This document shows positions 22,417 to 59,431 of a stretch of DNA of 59,997 nt, in pieces. The position numbers and the translations under genes were made by a program. The notes under the pieces were generated by a model. It saw nothing but the letters and a program-made list of their open reading frames with translations. It was not told the DNA's origin and ran no database searches. The DNA is from a virus: positions 1-59,997 of the IMG/VR virus record IMGVR_UViG_3300029535_000005, one strand, 5' to 3'. Every line of letters starts with the position of its first letter. Position 1 is the first letter of the stretch.

Positions 22417-22441
22417 GTGTAAACCTCCTTTATGAGTGCTT

Positions 22442-22499
22442 GTCTCATCAGTGGCAAGGTTGCAACCCTACACCAGACCGCCGCTCGGGCGGTTTCGAC
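22442..22499 (-). ncRNA. Hammerhead-ribozyme-like motif B (type II permutation; canonical CUGAUGA and GAAA cores)
   Basis: The minus strand reads GTC-GAA-A[CCGCC-CGAGC-GGCGG]T-C / [TGGTG..GGT-TGCA-ACC..GCCA]-CTGATGA-GAC. Confidence 0.75.
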
Positions 22500-22885
22500 T
22501 ATTCGCAAATTTTTCGAAAGATGTCTATTGTAAGATTTGCAGCGGCTCTTTTTTTATCCGAAACGTAGCCGCGGCGCTTGCTTTTCAAGGCTTTTTCTGC
22601 CTGCTTAATATTTCCAATTCCCCAGTTTCCGGCTTTTTCAAGTTTTTCCCATTCTTCCGGCGAAACCTTTATAGCTTTAAGCGTTTTCGGGTTAATGCTA
22701 AAGCAGTTACTGTCTTCTGGGTGCAAAAGCTGACACAGTGGAATATATTCATGTGTTCCCATGTTATCGCCGATATTCCAGACAAAAAATCCTTTCGGAA
22801 TTTTTGTGACAATCTCAAAAACATCTGTTTTACCAATTGATGTAGTGGTATAAATTTTATTGTTTTCAATTCTTAAATTTTCCAT
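22499..22885 (-). CDS. Hypothetical 128-aa protein (first cassette gene)
   Basis: ATG preceded by AGAAAGGGAT. The TAG stop abuts the GAAAC of motif B. Confidence 0.7.
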   Translation of the reverse strand: MENLRIENNKIYTTTSIGKTDVFEIVTKIPKGFFVWNIGDNMGTHEYIPLCQLLHPEDSNCFSINPKTLKAIKVSPEEWEKLEKAGNWGIGNIKQAEKALKSKRRGYVSDKKRAAANLTIDIFRKICE

Positions 22886-22903
22886 AGAATCCCTTTCTGG
22901 TCT

Positions 22904-22962
22904 GCCATCATCAGAGCCGGGAGACCATCCCGCGGCTTACGGTCATTTCTGACCGTTTCGGC
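22904..22962 (-). ncRNA. Hammerhead-ribozyme-like motif A (type II permutation; GUA cleavage triplet; extra U before stem II)
   Basis: The minus strand reads GCC-GAA-A[CGGTCA-GAAA-TGACCG]T-A / [AGCCGCGGGA-TGGTC-TCCCGGCT]-CTGATGA-T-GGC. It lies in the 5' leader of the cassette. Confidence 0.65.
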
Positions 22963-23036
22963 TTTTTTATCTATGTTCGATATAAAAACGCTTTCTTGTC
23001 CTCCTGGAATAATATTTTTGTTTTCCTGTTGGTATT

Positions 23037-23127
23037 ATAATATCACTTTTTTTAGTTATAGTCAATATGAAATATCACTTTTTTAAGAAATATTTTTCTT
23101 GACTTTTCCAACGTGTAAATATATGAT
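23037..23127. promoter_or_regulatory. Divergent promoter region with two ATATCACTTTTTT repeats
   Basis: Minus strand: TTGACT (23060-23065), 17 nt, TATTAT (23037-23042). Plus strand: TTGACT (23099-23104), 17 nt, TATGAT (23122-23127). Repeats at 23040-23052 and 23072-23084. Confidence 0.55.
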
Positions 23128-23987: not shown

Positions 23988-24390
23988 ATGTATTCAAACA
24001 CTCACACTTTAAAGCTGTAAATTTTGTATACAGAATGGATACGAAATGGAAACGTAGATAAGATTAGTATATTCTTTTAAATACATTGTATTTTTAATCA
24101 AGGAGTAAATAATATATAATATATATCAACAGTAAAAAAATCATAAACTATATATTGTAACACGCGCGGATATAATCTATATATGCGACATATCCAGTAG
24201 TTTAAATTTATACTTGACAAAGGACATCCACAAATGATATTGTTATCGTAAATTAAAAAGCATCCGGGCAACAGAGAGCGCACAGGACCCGGAGGATGGA
24301 AACGGAAGTCATGCAGCCGGTACAGTTAAGATCTTGATGATCTTGATTGTATCGGTTTATTTTTTTACGATCCAGAAAGGAGGTATATAT

Positions 24391-25056
24391 ATGCCAGATG
24401 CACAGAGAACAGAAAGAGTAGATATAGACGAGATATACAAAGATGACATCGATAAATATATCCACCTCTGGATGGACGATAGAAATATAACAGATATGTG
24501 CAAGGTATCACAGAATAGATGGTATAACTGTTGTCAGTATGTATATGACAATGTTTTTAAGATCAACCCTGTATACCTTAAAGATGACAACCATATTAGC
24601 AATCAATATGATATTGACAAGGTCAATAAAGTCTTAGATATATATATAAGGCTTTGCAATGATTACGAGAAAGTAATAAATATAGTTGGGTTTACTTTTT
24701 TTACTGGCATACATAGAGATACACTTAACGGCTGGGTAAATGGCGAAAGGCTAGGCTCCACGGCTTCCGACATTTGCAAAAAGATTGACCAAATGAGGGA
24801 AGAAAGCCTTGTAGGATTGCAGATCTCCGGAAAAAACAATCCCATGTGCTACATGCCGTCGCTCAACAAGTACTGCGGTTTTAATATGCCGGGCGTAAGA
24901 GACCAGGGATCCAGAGCAAGAGCGTTGACAGCTTCGGAGCTCCCCAAACTGGGAGGCGGGAATTGTGCGAGATTGCCGGACAACTTTGACAATTCAAGCC
25001 CAGATAATGGTGAAATCGTGATAGACAATTCAAACAATTTAAACCCCAGTATTTAA
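24391..25056 (+). CDS. Possible terminase small subunit or DNA-binding packaging protein
   Basis: ATG follows AGAAAGGAGG. GFTFFTGIHRDTLNGWVNG (HTH-like) and GKNNPMCYMPSLNKYCGF resemble TerS families. It lies 5.4 kb upstream of terL. Confidence 0.4.
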   Translation: MPDAQRTERVDIDEIYKDDIDKYIHLWMDDRNITDMCKVSQNRWYNCCQYVYDNVFKINPVYLKDDNHISNQYDIDKVNKVLDIYIRLCNDYEKVINIVGFTFFTGIHRDTLNGWVNGERLGSTASDICKKIDQMREESLVGLQISGKNNPMCYMPSLNKYCGFNMPGVRDQGSRARALTASELPKLGGGNCARLPDNFDNSSPDNGEIVIDNSNNLNPSI

Positions 25057-25718: not shown

Positions 25719-26044
25719 GGGTTGTGTCACAGAAAAAAGATGCTTCATATGATTTTGACCGGACCGAATTTAGAACAAGCTATGAATGCATAAGCGCTAC
25801 TTTTGATGGAAGAACTTTTGTCATTGGGAAATATGCTACACCAGAACGAGCAGCAGAAGTATTTATGGACATGCATAAAGCATATGCGCCTGTACAGGTA
25901 GTTTGCACAAATATGGACGAGAAACAAGTTTCTGCATTAGTTGCAGCATCACAAAATGCACCGATTAGATGCGTCAAGATGGATGATCCAAGGATGGCAG
26001 TAACAGTATTTGATAACCTTGTTTACTATATGCCGGAGAAATAG
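25715..26044 (+). CDS. Hypothetical protein
   Basis: 109-aa ORF. Confidence 0.6.
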   Translation: MRVVSQKKDASYDFDRTEFRTSYECISATFDGRTFVIGKYATPERAAEVFMDMHKAYAPVQVVCTNMDEKQVSALVAASQNAPIRCVKMDDPRMAVTVFDNLVYYMPEK

Positions 26045-26055
26045 ATTGTTTGCAT

Positions 26056-26127
26056 TGCTCGTTTGCCAAATGGTAAGGCACTGGGTTTTGATCCCAGCAT
26101 TTATCGGTTCGAGTCCGGTACGGGCAG
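26056..26127 (+). tRNA. tRNA-Gln (anticodon TTG)
   Basis: Hand-folded cloverleaf: TGCTCGT/ACGGGCA acceptor, GCC..GGC D-stem, CTGGG-TTTTGAT-CCCAG anticodon arm, ATCGG-TTCGAGT-CCGGT T-arm, discriminator G. No encoded CCA. Confidence 0.85.
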
Positions 26128-26148
26128 TTTTGAAAATGGAGGTAAATC

Positions 26149-26307
26149 ATGTTGATTTTAAAAACAGTCATAACAACATTTGATGCCCTTGCGATTTTGA
26201 CGTTTTTCTTGCTTGGAAGAGATGGCAGCAACGAAAAGGACGCTGTGGCAGTCTGGGGATCACTTATTGCATTGTTTCTTATCAATATATTTGCAATGTG
26301 GAGATGA
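26149..26307 (+). CDS. Small two-TM membrane protein (52 aa)
   Basis: GGAGGT RBS 6 nt upstream of the ATG, with hydrophobic segments. Confidence 0.5.
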   Translation: MLILKTVITTFDALAILTFFLLGRDGSNEKDAVAVWGSLIALFLINIFAMWR

Positions 26308-26605
26308 TGATATGGTTTTGTATGACCCGATATTTGGTATTCGCTTCCTGCCGGAAATTTTAACTACGGTCGGAAGAATACATATAAGCAGAAAAAAACA
26401 TACGGGAGAAACCGACGTTCTGGATCTTGACAGTGACGCTGAGCACCAGTCTGAGAAGTCGGAGCATCCAGTATAGCTTAAGTCCACTGGCATTCGGTTT
26501 TTGCAAGAAAAAACTCGGCGTAAGCAATTATTCGGTGTTAGTGGACGTCGGCAAAATAAAAAGATCAAAAATACTATCATAAACGGCGCGCTATGCGCGC
26601 TGTGA

Positions 26606-26694
26606 CGGAACGTAGTTCAGAGGAAAGAACAATCTTTTTATTCTTCCATGCTCTAGTGAATTGATAGCCGCAGGTTCAAGTCCTGCCGTTCCGA
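26606..26694 (+). ncRNA. Non-canonical tRNA-like element. Acceptor, D-arm and T-arm are present, but there is no foldable anticodon arm.
   Basis: CGGAACG/CGTTCCG acceptor, GTTC-AGAGGAAA-GAAC D-arm, GCAGG-TTCAAGT-CCTGC T-arm. The 39-nt middle segment does not form a 5-bp stem with a 7-nt loop. Confidence 0.4.
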
Positions 26695-27351
26695 TTGAGA
26701 AATAGGTTTAAAGCTTATCTCGGAATACGAAAAGTTCGTATTTCTCCTTTCGCTACTAGGAAGTTTCTGTTAAGGACGGTGCGAGACCGTCCGGTGGCGT
26801 TTGCCGCGGAGTGCGGCAAGGCGGAAGACCGCTTGGTGTTGGATAATGGTTGTCCCGTAATTTGCTGACGAGCAATACAGGCGGATTCCTATTGATAGTT
26901 CGGGTGCCTATCCCACGGTGCCTGAGCTGTCAAAAATACAATTAGGCTGTGGCGGAAAAAGGTAGACGCTTAAGCATAAGACAACCACGCTTTGGTTAGG
27001 AACAAGTCATTGAATTAACAAGGCAATGAAGGAACCTGTTAAGGGTGTTACCCGTTGTGGAAAGTCGTTGTTATGTGAGGTGCAAATCCTCACCAGCCTA
27101 TTTCCCGTGATATCGCACAGGATAGTGCAACGCATGGCACGAAAAATATGATTGCTAACCGTCTGATGGCGGTTCTCGTGGATGGCAAGAAAGGTATTTG
27201 CCGGAGTAAGACGCTTCGTGAAACTGATAGTCGAAAGGTTTCAAGTGCAAGGTTCAAGTCCTTGCTCCACGATGGTGCCGAGCTGATTTGATACTGTATG
27301 CGTAGCGCGCGGTCGCGTACAGAGATATGGAGTGAGGTGTCCGCGCATTTT
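26695..27351 (+). ncRNA. Candidate large structured ncRNA region containing two further tRNA-like modules (26944-27099 and 27176-27272)
   Basis: No credible ORF on either strand. Many GC-rich hairpins: GGACGG/CCGTCC 26774-26791, TTGCCGC/GCGGCAA 26801-26819, TTGCT-GACG-AGCAA 26862-26875, CTGTATGCG/CGCGTACAG 27293-27321. T-arm-like GTGAGG-TGCAAAT-CCTCAC and GCAAGG-TTCAAGT-CCTTGC. Confidence 0.45.
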
Positions 27352-27441
27352 GGGGAAGCGGCAACGATTGGAGGTGTTGCGGCTGACTGTAAATCAGTTC
27401 CCAAGTGGTAAACAATAGAGGTTCGATTCCTCTCTTCCCTA
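27352..27441 (+). tRNA. tRNA-Tyr (anticodon GTA), class II with a long variable arm
   Basis: GGGGAAG/CTTCCCT acceptor, GCTGA-CTGTAAA-TCAGT anticodon arm, AGAGG-TTCGATT-CCTCT T-arm, discriminator A. Confidence 0.75.
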
Positions 27442-27531
27442 TTTCACTCAACTCCCTAAAAACACTGTTTGGCAGGTGCGTGGTAGACAGTTGTAATGGA
27501 TGGGTTGTTTAAGAAATCGCACCATCAAGAT

Positions 27532-27616
27532 GCAGTGTTCCCATAATGGAATTGGAGCCGGTTGCTATCCGGTCGGGCGTTTATTCGCCTTGTAGGTTCG
27601 AGTCCTACACACTGCG
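27532..27616 (+). tRNA. tRNA-Ser (anticodon GCT), class II
   Basis: GCAGTGT/ACACTGC acceptor, GCCGG-TTGCTAT-CCGGT anticodon arm, GGCG..CGCC variable stem, GTAGG-TTCGAGT-CCTAC T-arm, discriminator G. Confidence 0.75.
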
Positions 27617-27731
27617 CTAACTTACGACAGGGATGAACCTTGCCGTAAGCGGTAGAAAGTCCGTGTGAAATTGTACAAAGTGGTGGCAAAAGCAATTTCG
27701 GATATAGCAGTTCCACCACACTGCTATATTT

Positions 27732-27815
27732 GCCGTATGTCCGGGTGGTGAGGGGGGGCGGTCTTGAAAACCGTTGGCTGTAAAAGGCTTGCAGGTTCAA
27801 ATCCTGTGTACGGCG
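27732..27815 (+). tRNA. tRNA-Ser (anticodon TGA), class II
   Basis: GCCGTAT/GTACGGC acceptor, GCGGT-CTTGAAA-ACCGT anticodon arm, GCAGG-TTCAAAT-CCTGT T-arm, discriminator G. The D-arm pairing is weak. Confidence 0.65.
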
Positions 27816-27925
27816 TTTGATTGAAAAAAAATCGAGCGTTAATGTGTGACGGAAAATGAACCGGAAATGATAGAAGTAACAACTTTGGAAGATTGTGAAC
27901 CTAGGTTTATGAGGAAGTGATTGAA

Positions 27926-28141
27926 ATGTGTGAATTTTGCAAGGATTACGATAACGGCAGAATATTCGGCGCTAATATTCCCATTCAGAAGTGTGCAAAT
28001 GAAACGAATTTGACAAATGCACAGATTATGATGAATGAAGGGGACGAAGTCCCAGGAATTGTGATTTATTCAAACTACTGTATGGCGAAAGGATACTTTG
28101 ATATTGCATTTTGCCCGATGTGCGGCAGAAAGTTGGTGTAA
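27926..28141 (+). CDS. Zinc-ribbon protein (CxxC ... CPMC)
   Basis: MCEFCKDYDNG ... FCPMCGRKLV. ATG 27926 follows GAGGAAGTG. Confidence 0.65.
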   Translation: MCEFCKDYDNGRIFGANIPIQKCANETNLTNAQIMMNEGDEVPGIVIYSNYCMAKGYFDIAFCPMCGRKLV

Positions 28142-30496: not shown

Positions 30497-30529
30497 GCAC
30501 TTCTGCTTTTGCGGAGGTGCTTTTCTTTT
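30497..30529 (+). terminator. Strong terminator-type hairpin whose 3' arm contains the terL RBS
   Basis: GCACTTCTGC-TTTT-GCGGAGGTGC followed by TTTTCTTTT. The TTG start of terL (30528) lies in the U-tract. Confidence 0.7.
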
Positions 30530-56760: not shown

Positions 56761-57411
56761 ATGAATAAAGAAACAATGGAAAACAACAAAGTGGAACTGG
56801 CAGGCGTGATTATTTCAGAGCCGGAGTTTATGTATGAATCATACGGAGAAAAATTTTACAAAATGTCTCTTGGAATAAAAAGAAAGAGCGGCGCCGTAGA
56901 CGAGATCCCATTAACCATTTCAGAAAGACTGTTTGATATTGAGGACAGATATTCGGGAATGGAGGTAATGGTTTCTGGAAGTTATCGCTCATTCAACAAA
57001 CAGGAGGGCACTAGACGCCGGTTGATCTTATCGGTGTTCGTTCGTGAAATCGAGGCGATTGATTCAAAAGATGCGGATATTGATAAGAATTGCATTACGA
57101 TCAATGGATATGTTTGCAAAGAACCAAATTACAGAGAGACGCCACTTGGTCGCGAGATCACAGACATGCTGATTGCAGTAAACAGAGATTATGGGAAATC
57201 TGATTACATTCCGTGCATTGCCTGGGGGAGAAATGCAAGATTTGCAGGCGGATTTAAAATCGGTACCCGTGTTAAGTTGATTGGAAGAATCCAGAGCCGA
57301 GAATACGACAAGAAGATTTCTGACACGGAGTTTGAGAAGAAAGTGGCTTATGAGGTTTCCGTAAGCAAATGTGATGTGATTGAGGAGGGGAAAAATGAAA
57401 ATAACAATTAA
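56761..57411 (+). CDS. Putative double-OB-fold ssDNA-binding protein
   Basis: Two repeats of an SSB-like pattern (VELAGVIISEPEF..., ITINGYVCKEPNYRETPLGREI...IPCIAWGRNARF). Confidence 0.5.
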   Translation: MNKETMENNKVELAGVIISEPEFMYESYGEKFYKMSLGIKRKSGAVDEIPLTISERLFDIEDRYSGMEVMVSGSYRSFNKQEGTRRRLILSVFVREIEAIDSKDADIDKNCITINGYVCKEPNYRETPLGREITDMLIAVNRDYGKSDYIPCIAWGRNARFAGGFKIGTRVKLIGRIQSREYDKKISDTEFEKKVAYEVSVSKCDVIEEGKNENNN

Positions 57412-59431
57412 GAGTATTCACATCGAGAATTTCAAGGGCATCAATATGCTTGACGTGAATTTCTCTGTGAAAACGAAGATCAGCGGGCAGAATGCCGTAG
57501 GAAAGACAACGATCTTTGATGCGTTTACATGGCTGCTTTTCAACAAGAACAGTTCCGGAGAGGAAAAGTTTAATGTCCGCCCTTTAAATAAGGAAGGAAC
57601 ACGTATTGATAACGTGGAAATAAAGGTTGTAGCAATTATGGACGTTGATGGCAAAGAAGTAGAGCTTTCCAAGGTTCAGAAGCAGAATTGGGTCAAGAAG
57701 CGTGGCACAAATACAGTGTCATTGCAGGGAAATCCAAATTCATACGAGATTGACGGCTATCCAAAAAGTGAAGCTGAATTTAAGGAGTATGTATCTGGTA
57801 TTGCGCAGAGTGAGGAAATGTTCAAAATGCTGACTAATCCGCAGTATTTTTCTTCTTTGAAATGGAAAGACCAGAGAGATATTTTGATGAAACTTGTTTC
57901 AGATGTTTCAGATGTAGAGCTGGCACAGACGGACGCGAAGTATGCACCATTGCTTTCAGAATTGGAGAAAGCACCGTCTACGGATGATATTAGAGCAAAA
58001 TTCTCCAAAGCATTGAACGAGTGGAAGAAGAAACAGGCAGAGATTCCAGTCCGAATTGACGAAGCCATGAAATCCAAGGTTGACATCGATGTTGCAGAAC
58101 AGGAACTTGCGAAAACAGACTTGGAAACCAAAATTGCAGATATTGATGCGAAGATCAAAGATTCTGACGGAGTAATGATGGAGTTAGAACGTGAAGAAAT
58201 GCAGCTGCAGTTTGATATGTCTGGGATTATGCAGACTATGAATCGCGATCTGACAAACAGGAGAAGCGAGATCCAAGCAGAATTACGCGATTTGCAAAAC
58301 GAGATGAAGCGATTTGCAGATACGATTGCTTTGAAAGAGAGACGGGTTTCAGAAAATGAGACGGTTATTTCCAATGCTGATTCAGAGCGGAAAAGGATTG
58401 GAGAGGAGTACATCGCAGAAACAGCAAAGGCTTTTGATGAATTCCCATATCTGTTTGATGAATCCAAGTGGGTATTTGATGAAAACAGCACCGTTTGCTC
58501 ATTGTGTGGTCAGAAGTTGCCGGAAGATAAAATTGAGCAGTTAAAGGCTGATTTTGAAAGCAGAAAGCGAAAAGCCAAGGCAGATGCAGAAGAAAAGTTA
58601 AAATCAGAAAAGATCAGATTTGACACAGAAAAGAGAACAGCACTGAACAGATTAGTTGATATTGGCACAGAGAGAAAAAATCTTATCACAAAATTAAGGG
58701 ATGAAAATGCCAAAGTAAAGGAAGAAATAAAGTCCTTAAAGGAACAGGAGCAGGAAGATATTGCAAAAAAAGAAAAGCTCTGCCAGCAGTTATCATTGAT
58801 TCCGGAAATTGCCGATTATTTGCAGAATGAAGAGTACATGGAGTTGAAAGCAAGGTATGACGAAGTTCTGGAAGAAATTGAAAAGATGAACGCCAATGGA
58901 GAGGATGCAGCAGTTGAATCCTTAAAATCTGAAAAAGAAGAGCTTCAGGCGCGTCTTGATGATGTAAACAAAATCATTGCAAAAGCATCTATGAATGTTG
59001 AGATTGATGAGCGTATCTGGCAGTTGCAGGAAGAACAGAAAGAAATCGGGCAGAAGGTTGCGGATCAGGAACAGATTCTTTACCTGTTGGAAGAGTTCAT
59101 TCGTTTCAAACTCAACAAGGTTTCTGAATCCATCAACAGCCATTTTAAGACAGTTAATTTCAAACTCTTTGAAATGCAGTTAAATGGCGGTATGAAAGAT
59201 TGCTGTGAGTGCACCGTAAATGGAGTGCCGTATTCGACTTTGAATAGCGGTCATAGAATTGTAGCCGGACTTGATATTATCCGTTCTCTTAGCGAGTTAT
59301 ATGGCGTTATCGTGCCGATTTTTGTGGATAACGCAGAGAGCTTAAATGATTTCAATGTGCCGGATATGGATGCACAGTTAATCCTTTTGAGTGTATCAGC
59401 GGACAAGCAGTTGAAAGTGGAGGGTGTTTAA
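57395..59431 (+). CDS. SMC/Rad50/RecN-like AAA ATPase with a long coiled coil
   Basis: Walker A GQNAVGKTT at the N-terminus, a central coiled coil with CSLCGQ (zinc-hook-like), and C-terminal Walker B IFVDNAESL. Confidence 0.8.
   Translation: MKITIKSIHIENFKGINMLDVNFSVKTKISGQNAVGKTTIFDAFTWLLFNKNSSGEEKFNVRPLNKEGTRIDNVEIKVVAIMDVDGKEVELSKVQKQNWVKKRGTNTVSLQGNPNSYEIDGYPKSEAEFKEYVSGIAQSEEMFKMLTNPQYFSSLKWKDQRDILMKLVSDVSDVELAQTDAKYAPLLSELEKAPSTDDIRAKFSKALNEWKKKQAEIPVRIDEAMKSKVDIDVAEQELAKTDLETKIADIDAKIKDSDGVMMELEREEMQLQFDMSGIMQTMNRDLTNRRSEIQAELRDLQNEMKRFADTIALKERRVSENETVISNADSERKRIGEEYIAETAKAFDEFPYLFDESKWVFDENSTVCSLCGQKLPEDKIEQLKADFESRKRKAKADAEEKLKSEKIRFDTEKRTALNRLVDIGTERKNLITKLRDENAKVKEEIKSLKEQEQEDIAKKEKLCQQLSLIPEIADYLQNEEYMELKARYDEVLEEIEKMNANGEDAAVESLKSEKEELQARLDDVNKIIAKASMNVEIDERIWQLQEEQKEIGQKVADQEQILYLLEEFIRFKLNKVSESINSHFKTVNFKLFEMQLNGGMKDCCECTVNGVPYSTLNSGHRIVAGLDIIRSLSELYGVIVPIFVDNAESLNDFNVPDMDAQLILLSVSADKQLKVEGV

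Follow-up and report, generated by a model that had tools for sequence, protein, structure and literature searches.

Four independent genes for tRNA-shaped RNAs, interleaved with ordinary tRNA genes, appear to be encoded in a 0.9 kb region (26476-27351) of the IMG/VR virus record IMGVR_UViG_3300029535_000005, in the 59,997-nt stretch (positions 1 to 59,997) that was analyzed and is referred to here as the window. The region is the middle of a 1.8 kb tRNA island that runs from tRNA-Gln to tRNA-Ser (26055-27816). A preliminary description, made from the letters of the same DNA, had proposed that the region is one large, ornate RNA of the ROOL or GOLLD kind with three tRNA-like modules. We put the probability of the present explanation, a modular island with four independent genes for tRNA-shaped RNAs that cannot decode, at roughly two in three. 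The four units, of 50-180 nt, are module 1, E0, module 2 and module 3 (Table 1); E0, the largest, had been overlooked.

A noncoding region of independently inherited units

The region starts after the stop codon of an open reading frame (ORF) at 26312-26476 and ends at tRNA-Tyr. The preliminary description found no credible coding frame in it, and the general features that it reported were confirmed. The longest ORF on the + strand encodes 57 amino acids (26695-26868), and the longest on the - strand encodes 104 amino acids (27090-27404), running antisense through tRNA-Tyr and disrupted in relatives that lack 27175-27347. The G+C content of 26400-27600 is 0.46-0.50, compared to 0.32-0.42 in the flanks. 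The predicted fold of the 876 nt has a free energy of -304.8 kcal/mol, compared to -264.6 +/- 9.9 kcal/mol in 20 shuffles (z = -4.05). No promoters or terminators above shuffle expectation were found on the + strand.

More than 140 close relatives, IMG/VR contigs of ca. 58 kb each, were collected by means of two flanking proteins; 149 related loci made up the set for BLAST, and labels such as L001 and L152 denote the loci compared. Alignments of 26045-27916 with the 149 loci break at the same few coordinates (26711, 26745, 26936/43, 27117-23, 27174, 27295, 27348, 27442 and 27532), and these coincide with the edges of the units. Among relatives that are 93-99% identical elsewhere, some lack module 2 (26937-27120), some lack module 3 (27175-27347), and some lack 26712-27855, with 26711 joined to 27856. 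In others 27174 is joined directly to 27348 or to 27532, or other odd tRNA-like genes occupy the same slots. The same 58-nt leader block is found across relatives and lineages before module 3, other odd modules, tRNA-Tyr, tRNA-Glu or tRNA-Ile, and its last hairpin ends 1-2 nt ahead of the next tRNA or tRNA-like gene. The trailer that follows module 3 (27273-27350) also follows other odd modules in relatives. Given the recurrent breakpoints and the common leader before whichever gene fills the slot, the region is an array of cassettes, and its units are inherited independently.

Rfam searches, as suggested in the preliminary description, gave no sign of a known large RNA. No family in Rfam release 15 matched 26695-27350 at E <= 10, and a cmscan of 25900-28000 at the same threshold returned only tRNA, tRNA-Sec and chance snoRNA and IS009 matches, with no ROOL and no GOLLD. 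At the Rfam gathering threshold, the whole window contains only tRNA and Hammerhead_II; the window, its relatives and the distant members of the class described below together contain only tRNA, Hammerhead_II and int-alpA, the latter two elsewhere. A tmRNA was found neither by ARAGORN in the window or 17 relatives nor by Rfam in the window at E <= 10.

E0

E0 (26751-26932) is a structured RNA of ca. 180 nt. In an alignment of 13 distinct sequences with eight helices and 57 pairs, 95.9% of the pairs form, and 19 pairs have changes on both sides. Shuffled alignments gave 9.9 +/- 2 such pairs (none of 500 reached 19), and alignments with slid partners gave at most 7. The helices include 118 G.U cells and 12 A.C cells, an asymmetry which argues that the structure is that of a + strand RNA and not of DNA. 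By these comparisons, E0 is a + strand RNA whose helices have been kept by compensatory change.

The first part, E0a, resembles a tRNA minihelix. Its T-arm-like hairpin GGACGG-UGCGAGA-CCGUCC (26774-26792) stacks directly on the acceptor-like helix, and a nearly invariant linker of 16 nt takes the place of the D and anticodon arms. The predicted geometry is that of the acceptor/T-arm minihelix of a tRNA, with a 6-bp stem and a 7-nt loop, UGCGAGA. Compensatory changes in helix 1 include a switch from A-U to U-A in L152, and others are found in L161, L193 and L230. At least 120 IMG/VR stretches contain the E0a core pattern, in 42-51 distinct variants, as do three metagenome-assembled genomes (MAGs) of Lachnospiraceae. 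The motif YCUCCUUUC always precedes the core and is directly 5' of it in all 51 variants (26743-26751 in the window); its sequence is identical to that of the anti-Shine-Dalgarno tail of 16S rRNA in Firmicutes. If E0a were cleaved at its 5' end, this motif would become a 3' end. A tmRNA-like reading of E0a, considered on account of a common GAUUCUG, was dropped, as it had no model support and there is no G3.U70.

In a distant prophage in a Lachnospiraceae MAG from water-deer caecum (L152:680-790), E0a stands without the rest of E0, behind another acceptor/T-arm minihelix and directly before a terminase-like ORF. There the 3' strand of helix 1 contains GGAGG, 7 nt before the ATG, an arrangement that suggests possible translational control.

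E0b has the densest covariation of E0, with double compensatory changes in 15 of the 23 pairs of helices 4-7. Its junction has a closing helix (26829-26835/26878-26884) and two branches (26841-26855 and 26862-26875). It is optional, being missing from L150 and replaced in L012. A hammerhead reading of CUGACGAG (26865-26872) was rejected – Rfam gives no hammerhead match in the region, relatives carry CUGACAAG, which would inactivate the core, and the sequence is the loop of a covarying hairpin. That hairpin in helix 7, GC-UGACGA-GC, is also found in the core of an unrelated Leu-type scaffold RNA (ACGCUGACGAGCGU, L362) and may be a common loop motif.

The loop of E0c, UAUCCCAC, is invariant in all 13 aligned sequences. 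Other lineages have a short hairpin with a different stem directly after E0a, and most of them retain this loop. A mini-ORF (MHLSHGA*) seen in E0c-like hairpins elsewhere, in other lineages, results from their palindromic CATG stems and does not occur in the window.

Module 2 and the Leu-type scaffold class

The three modules of the preliminary description were found where it had placed them, with module 2 now delimited at 26943-27099 and its acceptor stem lengthened to 7 bp. Module 2 consists of this stem, a D arm of the tRNA-Leu type (UGGCGGAAAAAGGUAGACGC), a core of 105 nt, a 6-bp T stem and the T loop UGCAAAU. It is an insertion that is absent from L001, L012 and L132. Neither Rfam nor ARAGORN gives a tRNA call for it or for module 3, even at E <= 10 and with or without introns. 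The D-arm pattern GTGGCGGAANNNGGTAGACGC belongs to a tRNA-Leu in 30 of the 32 cases in IMG/VR that ARAGORN can call, and there are many uncalled elements besides.

These features define a class of RNAs, the Leu-type scaffold: a 7-bp acceptor stem, the D arm UGGCGGAAnnnGGUAGACGC, a variable core, a 6-bp T stem and the loop UGCAAAU, all five of which are found in module 2. With at least 6 of 7 acceptor pairs and at least 5 of 6 T-stem pairs required, the class has 22 mutually divergent members in IMG/VR, module 2 and 21 more. The cores are 29-161 nt long and have no sequence in common, and YAU precedes the T stem. Of the 33 distinct sequences that pass the filter, 29 have UGCAAAU as their T loop. 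Covariation is found in 12 of 16 pairs. The six acceptor pairs that vary and the six pairs of the T stem all covary, with 83 double-change cells compared to 22 +/- 4 in shuffles (0 of 500). On this comparative evidence, the helices of the class have been kept by compensatory change. No Rfam family covers these elements. They lie between ORFs, in the same orientation, and three of them adjoin terminase or portal genes.

The core of module 2 begins with UAAGC-AUAAGAC, which has the format of a Leu(AAG) anticodon arm, and the 3' strand GCUUU follows only after six extra bases (AACCAC). About half of the close relatives have AAA where the anticodon-like triplet here is AAG.

Module 3

Module 3 folds as a class-II-like cloverleaf, in which the D and T stems are both 6 bp long, the 5-nt loop AAGAC caps a 5-bp stem, the variable arm has 7 bp and the T loop is UUCAAGU; the length of the T stem is as first described, and that of the D stem, given earlier as 5-6 bp, is 6 bp. 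Within the family, the D stem has one compensatory change, and there are two wobble-preserving changes. In a second lineage (L236, L276 and L324) the 62-nt interior is identical, while three acceptor pairs and two T-stem pairs differ, all five of them compensatory. In total, 6 of the 31 pairs have double changes, and 99.5% are paired. As judged from these alignments, module 3 is constrained by sequence in its interior and by structure in its stems. Compensatory changes in homologs, which the preliminary description had proposed as a check, are thus found in E0, the module 2 class and module 3, with shuffle controls for the first two.

Module 1

Module 1 is the only one of the three modules seen by tRNA finders, and their calls for it are inconsistent. 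The Rfam tRNA model scores it at 47.0 bits (cut-off 29), with a 22-nt insertion in the anticodon arm and two non-standard pairs. The ARAGORN calls are mutually incompatible: Lys-CUU, or Pyl-CUA if a 15-nt 'intron' is allowed, and '???' in some relatives. The slot of the anticodon arm holds a 34-nt irregular hairpin with the pyrimidine-rich stretch AUCUUUUUAUUCUUCC – there is no 5-bp anticodon stem with a 7-nt loop (U33, purine 37), and no unambiguous anticodon. In the Rfam tRNA alignment, module 1 keeps the 7/5 acceptor/T stack.

In 86 locus entries, the slot of module 1 holds an ordinary 73-nt tRNA-Ile(UAU) with an identical acceptor stem and T arm. In the window and ca. 40 entries, the D arm and the anticodon arm have been replaced, and AAUC-UUUUUAUUCUUCCAUGCUCUAGUGA-AUUGAU stands where the anticodon arm of 17 nt would be. 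The pyrimidine-rich motif AUCUUUUCAUYCUU is common to two other variants, a shorter one and that of L043. The D stem has one compensatory switch, GUUC/GAAC to or from GCUC/GAGC. A scan of the whole collection found the interior of module 1 only within this phage family, and only in this frame. Module 1 may be a recent, possibly neutral, derivative of the phage tRNA-Ile(UAU), and the evidence for a function is weak.

The leader before module 1 has the lowest diversity of the region (0.009 among 25 colinear relatives), and other lineages have a different hairpin in place of GCGCGC-UAU-GCGCGC. They also have a different hairpin in the position of the two spacer hairpins after module 1 (26697-26744). 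Positions 26550-26565 of the leader are complementary to 26632-26647 of module 1, a 16-nt, A/U-rich match that nothing else supports.

In two chimeric tRNA genes (L078:4570-4690 and L536:8744-8850), the 5' portion comes from one tRNA and the 3' portion from a different one, with the junction at the T arm. They are direct evidence of frequent recombination between arrayed tRNA genes.

Common architecture and proposed role

E0, module 2 and module 3 each keep the upper half of a tRNA, an acceptor helix that in the predicted structures is stacked on a T arm. In E0a, the module 2 class and module 3, this stack has 7 + 6 = 13 bp, compared to 12 bp in tRNA, and two of these three have G in place of U at position 55 of the T loop. 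None of modules 1-3 or E0a has a 7-nt anticodon loop on a 5-bp stem. For the modules this had been noted earlier, and it is borne out by the 22-nt insertion in module 1, the ca. 105 nt between the D and T arms of module 2, and the 5-nt loop of module 3. The preliminary description had offered decayed or deliberately anticodon-less tRNA mimics as its second choice. The latter agrees with modules 2 and 3, in which the stems covary and there is no decoding-competent loop; 'decayed tRNA' is a fair description of module 1 only. E0b, modules 2 and 3 and several unrelated members of the class all have the heptamer R-UAAGA-Y after their D-arm-like hairpin.

The acceptor/T minihelix is the recognition element of RNase P, RNase Z and the CCA-adding enzyme. 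EF-Tu needs the 12-bp form, and tRNA-Sec, with 13 bp, needs SelB. The anticodon is not read by bacterial leucyl-tRNA synthetase (LeuRS). From these properties we infer how the units might act. The island would probably be transcribed as a precursor, from which host RNase P and RNase Z or the CCA-adding enzyme would excise the units as stable small RNAs by way of their tRNA-like ends. The 13-bp stack and the missing anticodon loop would exclude the units from EF-Tu and the ribosome. More tentatively, the units could then occupy, as mimics, host or phage factors that read the upper half or the elbow of tRNA; candidate targets are tRNA-directed defence enzymes, LeuRS (for the Leu-type D arm) and T-box leaders.

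A broader proposal, which is possible and more speculative still, is that phages of gut Firmicutes and other phages in IMG/VR encode an undescribed set of non-decoding, tRNA-shaped RNAs whose trans-acting targets would be host components that recognize the shape of a tRNA. Such RNAs would be matured by the tRNA enzymes of the host and kept from EF-Tu and the ribosome. Its members would be the E0a minihelix, the Leu-type UGCAAAU scaffold with its hypervariable core, and the AAGAC-loop cloverleaf, with the 13-bp (7+6) stack as their signature. They could be decoys for tRNA-directed anti-phage enzymes, or false 'uncharged tRNA' signals.

Phage tRNA genes are usually explained by codon supply, and lately by the replacement of tRNAs destroyed by host defences. 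The present locus indicates that tRNA islands also hold conserved RNAs that have the upper half of a tRNA and appear incapable of decoding, and at least two of the families extend far beyond this phage (at least 120 IMG/VR stretches for the E0a core, at least 22 divergent members for the Leu-type scaffold). If these are tRNA mimics, they are testable candidates for RNA-based manipulation of host enzymes that recognize tRNA, in abundant phages of gut Lachnospiraceae. They would also be new families for RNA databases, with the 7+6 stack and the G55 T loop as a simple search signature. If they are processing signals only, unannotated 'gaps' in many phage genomes would still be explained. In either case there is a warning for annotation – tRNA finders miss such genes and mis-call them, as with module 1, called Lys, Pyl or unknown.

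Several points weigh against trans-acting mimicry, and some of them against any function for particular units. Both the processing and the non-decoding mimicry are read from features of the sequence. A tRNA gene lies within 1.5 kb of only 4 of 23 elements of the Leu-type class; the class is thus mostly found outside tRNA arrays beyond this phage family, and a cis-acting leader fits it as well as a mimic acting in trans. The pairing filter inflates the percentage of paired positions in the class, while leaving the number of pair types and the invariant loop unaffected. Two polymorphisms without compensation contradict the minimum free energy helices in the module 2 core, and together with the AAG/AAA polymorphism this leaves the upper half and elbow of the tRNA, not the core, as the conserved part. 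Nucleotide diversity within the close family is only 1-5% everywhere, and that of the module 2 interior (0.035) does not differ from that of third codon positions (0.033). Diversity this low does not set the units apart from third codon positions, and it gives no evidence of selection on module 1 or the module 2 core. Frequent recombination at the T arm could also create and homogenize odd modules without any function.

Alternative explanations

The main alternative to four genes for trans-acting RNAs, which we regard as rather unlikely, is that the units act in cis. As tRNA-like punctuation, they would be cleaved by RNase P and RNase Z so as to separate or stabilize mRNAs; or they would be a leader that controls the transcription or translation of the packaging genes. 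The position of the island between a terS-like ORF at 24334 (a weak GP3_package match) and terL at 30528 is in line with this, as are the terminase and portal genes beside three elements of the Leu-type class and the E0a of L152, with its GGAGG before a terminase-like ORF. That coupling of E0a to a ribosome-binding site is found in one example only, however, and in the window no ORF directly follows E0a, module 2 or module 3. A mere cleavage signal would also need neither the hypervariable core of the module 2 class nor the invariant interior of module 3.

It is improbable that the units as a whole are neutral debris, that is, decayed or chimeric tRNA pseudogenes which arose by recombination in the array and inherited their structure from tRNA ancestors. 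This explanation is plausible mainly for module 1, whose acceptor stem and T arm are exactly those of the tRNA-Ile(UAU) of relatives and which is confined to this family; the T-arm chimeras, and module interiors as diverse as third codon positions, fit it too. In E0, the module 2 class and module 3, however, compensatory changes have preserved stems across divergent lineages. The interior of module 3 is identical between lineages whose stems have diverged, and the UGCAAAU loop and the E0a linker are near-invariant, which is not expected of pseudogenes.

Decoding tRNAs whose introns or insertions are removed after transcription are very unlikely. Module 1 would then be an amber suppressor, the tRNA(CUA) with a 15-nt intron given by ARAGORN in intron mode, and module 2 a tRNA-Leu(AAG), the arm UAAGC-AUAAGAC-(AACCAC)-GCUUU being near-canonical apart from its 6-nt interruption. 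The 'intron' of module 1 lies at 30/31, however, inside a stem that is also mismatched. The long ORFs of the phage are in the standard code and have no need of a suppressor, and AAG or AAA at the would-be anticodon of module 2 would mean missense. The inserts in the window are 17-105 nt long, compared to ca. 200 nt or more for group I introns; Rfam gives no Intron_gpI match, and no RNA ligase or splicing endonuclease domain is among the 27 phage ORFs scanned (nor is there a Ro60 or reverse transcriptase domain). The 13-bp acceptor/T stack also differs from the 12 bp compatible with EF-Tu.

The single RNA first proposed, spanning 26476-27351 with the tRNA-like modules as its domains, is hardly tenable. 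The setting in a phage tRNA cluster and the G+C-rich, highly structured sequence (z = -4.05) are as expected of a ROOL or GOLLD RNA, but there is no match to a large RNA at E <= 10, and the sub-units come and go independently in otherwise nearly identical relatives. The supported helices all lie within one unit, with no covarying long-range helix between units, and E0a, module 2 and module 3 each stand alone in other phage lineages.

That the stems act as DNA, in an attP core, a replication origin or a packaging site, is extremely unlikely: the phage is temperate with an integrase, the region is near packaging genes and tRNA gene fragments are frequent in attP sites, but the G.U and A.C counts of E0 fit pairing only as + strand RNA, the integrase is 11 kb off, and both halves of the acceptor stems are present and covary, unlike a one-sided att fragment.

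An antisense reading, in which the units would pair with targets, was also dropped. The best match to the window of the reverse complements of the module cores and E0 is at most 11 nt, and the motif GGAAGAAUGAAAAGAU has 4 matches at up to 3 mismatches, near the 2.7 expected by chance.

Comparison with known systems

The tRNA cluster of phage T4 holds small stable RNAs, 'species 1 and 2' (rnaC and rnaD), of unknown role, with tRNA-like ends and processing. Both there and here, a co-oriented phage tRNA array is interleaved with RNAs of tRNA size. The present phage differs in being temperate, in its Firmicute (Lachnospiraceae) host, in the 7+6 stack, and in the UGCRA T loop of two units.

Departure from the 7/5 acceptor/T branch is also known from tRNA-Sec and allo-tRNAs. 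In allo-tRNAs, which occur in phages and in polycistrons of irregular tRNAs, the branches are 8/5, 9/4, 8/4 or 9/3, and they keep a normal 7-nt anticodon loop and decode in E. coli (PMC5389517). The units described here have 13 stacked pairs, as tRNA-Sec does, and module 3 shares with these tRNAs a D stem of 6 bp and a long variable arm. The split here is 7/6, however, and not 8/5, and the tRNA-Sec model of Rfam matches none of modules 1-3 at E <= 10.

Among RNAs with the shape of a tRNA and no role in translation, which act through proteins that recognize the shape, are 'tRNA-Other' of Bacillus cereus, a pseudo-tRNA (PMC3399842), YrlA, a non-translating tRNA mimic (PMC4201824), the tRNA-like domain of tmRNA, and mascRNA. 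E0a resembles the tmRNA domain: it consists of acceptor and T arm only, and a loop replaces the D arm. The present units match no tmRNA, YrlA or mascRNA model, however. They lack G3.U70 and a tag reading frame, and none of the 27 ORFs scanned has a Ro60 domain. In contrast to all four, they are phage-borne, and several are clustered.

ROOL and GOLLD are single RNAs of 500-800 nt, each with one conserved architecture (PMC5737381, PMC12286853). They share with the present locus the setting in Firmicute phages and prophages, beside or among tRNA genes. Here there are instead four independent units of 50-180 nt, with no model match, which are not inherited as one contiguous RNA.

The kind of RNA is thus not new, since tRNA mimics and irregular tRNAs are known (tRNA-Other, PMC3399842; allo-tRNAs, PMC5389517; YrlA, PMC4201824; tmRNA; T4 species 1 and 2). 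The three families, the 7+6 signature and the clustering are not in Rfam 15, and a literature search found no description of the three families. Comparable candidates are in a 2023 catalogue from IMG/VR, which lists 8,495 unnamed candidates, some of them 'tRNA or tRNA-like', and reports an 86-nt, highly transcribed candidate in Lachnospiraceae phages (PMC10690425). E0, module 2 or module 3 may already be listed there; the paper describes no 7/6 stack, UGCAAAU loop or hypervariable core.

Features of the island and the window

The positions of the features of the island are given in Table 1. Two small + strand ORFs without a family match lie between tRNA-Gln and module 1, at 26149-26307 (52 amino acids) and 26312-26476 (54 amino acids). 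The first has two hydrophobic segments and a GGAGG ribosome-binding site. In the second, diversity among relatives is highest at codon position 3 and lowest at position 2, which is consistent with coding. At the other end of the island, the D region of tRNA-Ser(UGA) contains seven consecutive G (GGUGAGGGGGGGCGG), where relatives have GGGAG or GGGGG, two bases shorter. It falls below the tRNA cut-off, and its top match is the tRNA-Sec model, at 37.8 bits (cut-off of that model, 47). The run may be homopolymer variation or an assembly error.

Table 1. Features of the tRNA island, in window coordinates
Feature	Position	Strand	Evidence	Details
tRNA-Gln(UUG), canonical	26055-26128	+	ARAGORN; Rfam tRNA, 56.1 bits	left end of island
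Noncoding leader	26477-26605	+	sequence	ends in hairpin GCGCGC-UAU-GCGCGC (26586-26600) right before module 1
Module 1	26606-26694	+	Rfam tRNA; ARAGORN; relatives	tRNA-Ile(UAU) frame: acceptor CGGAACG/CGTTCCG, T arm, 4-bp D stem
Two spacer hairpins	26697-26721, 26722-26744	+	fold z = -3.3	second followed by UCUCCUUUC (26743-26751)
E0a, tRNA-minihelix mimic (putative)	26751-26799	+	helices 1 and 3	7-bp acceptor-like helix, 26751-26757/26793-26799
E0b	26803-26884	+	helices 4-7	hairpin 26803-26817, then three-way junction
E0c	26893-26932	+	helix 8; fold z = -5.1	16-bp G.U-rich hairpin, loop UAUCCCAC
Module 2, Leu-type scaffold RNA	26943-27099	+	covariation in class	acceptor TAGGCTG/CAGCCTA
Cassette leader	27101-27175	+	relatives	hairpins 27104-27121; GUGC...GCAC, 27125-27140; AACCGUC-UGAU-GGCGGUU, 27157-27174
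Module 3, class-II-like cloverleaf	27176-27272	+	fold z = -3.7, minimum free energy fold = centroid	acceptor TCGTGGA/TCCACGA, 7 bp
Trailer	27273-27350	+	sequence; relatives	GGUGCCGAGCUGAU...; hairpin 27294-27322
tRNA-Tyr(GUA)	27351-27442	+	ARAGORN; Rfam	right part of island
tRNA-Ser(GCU)	27532-27617	+	ARAGORN; Rfam	right part of island
tRNA-Ser(UGA)	27731-27816	+	ARAGORN; Rfam	right part of island

The large ORFs of the window are all on the + strand, and include those for a RecT-like protein, a sigma factor, a tyrosine integrase, a T7-type large terminase, an SPP1-type portal and an E-type capsid protein. By its gene content, the phage is temperate and siphovirus-like. The only genome matches to a conserved 28-nt piece of the region were in two Roseburia MAGs and one Lachnospiraceae MAG, and none of the phages in INPHARED covers more than 5% of the region. 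Upstream of the island, the 240-amino-acid ORF 24334-25056 has the weak small-terminase-like match (GP3_package, E 0.003); the large terminase is apart from it, 5.5 kb downstream of the island. An SbcC/AAA_15-like ATPase-nuclease is encoded at the right end of the window (57380-59431).

One gene, 22434-23062, is on the minus strand of this otherwise + strand genome. It begins with a sigma-70-like promoter (TTGACT...TATAAT, ca. 23062-23033), followed by a strong match to a type II hammerhead ribozyme (22896-22963, 56.4 bits) and a 128-amino-acid ORF (22885-22499) without a Pfam or PHROG match, after which there is a second, weak hammerhead match (22434-22500, 25.8 bits, E 0.013). The hammerhead of this gene is kept in relatives, and in one of them (L043) two copies score above threshold. 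Together, the pair might serve to trim or circularize the mRNA of the gene.

A further tRNA-like RNA of 103-107 nt, absent from the window, was found at L003:8088-8190, with homologs in L126, L132, L133, L136, L138 and L148. It has a T arm and an acceptor stem and lacks a normal D or anticodon arm, and the close phage group has it as well as the distant one (66-72% protein identity). Its acceptor stem covaries between lineages, as AGCGGUA/UGCCGCU, AGUUGCA/UGCAACU and AGUGACA/UGUCACU.

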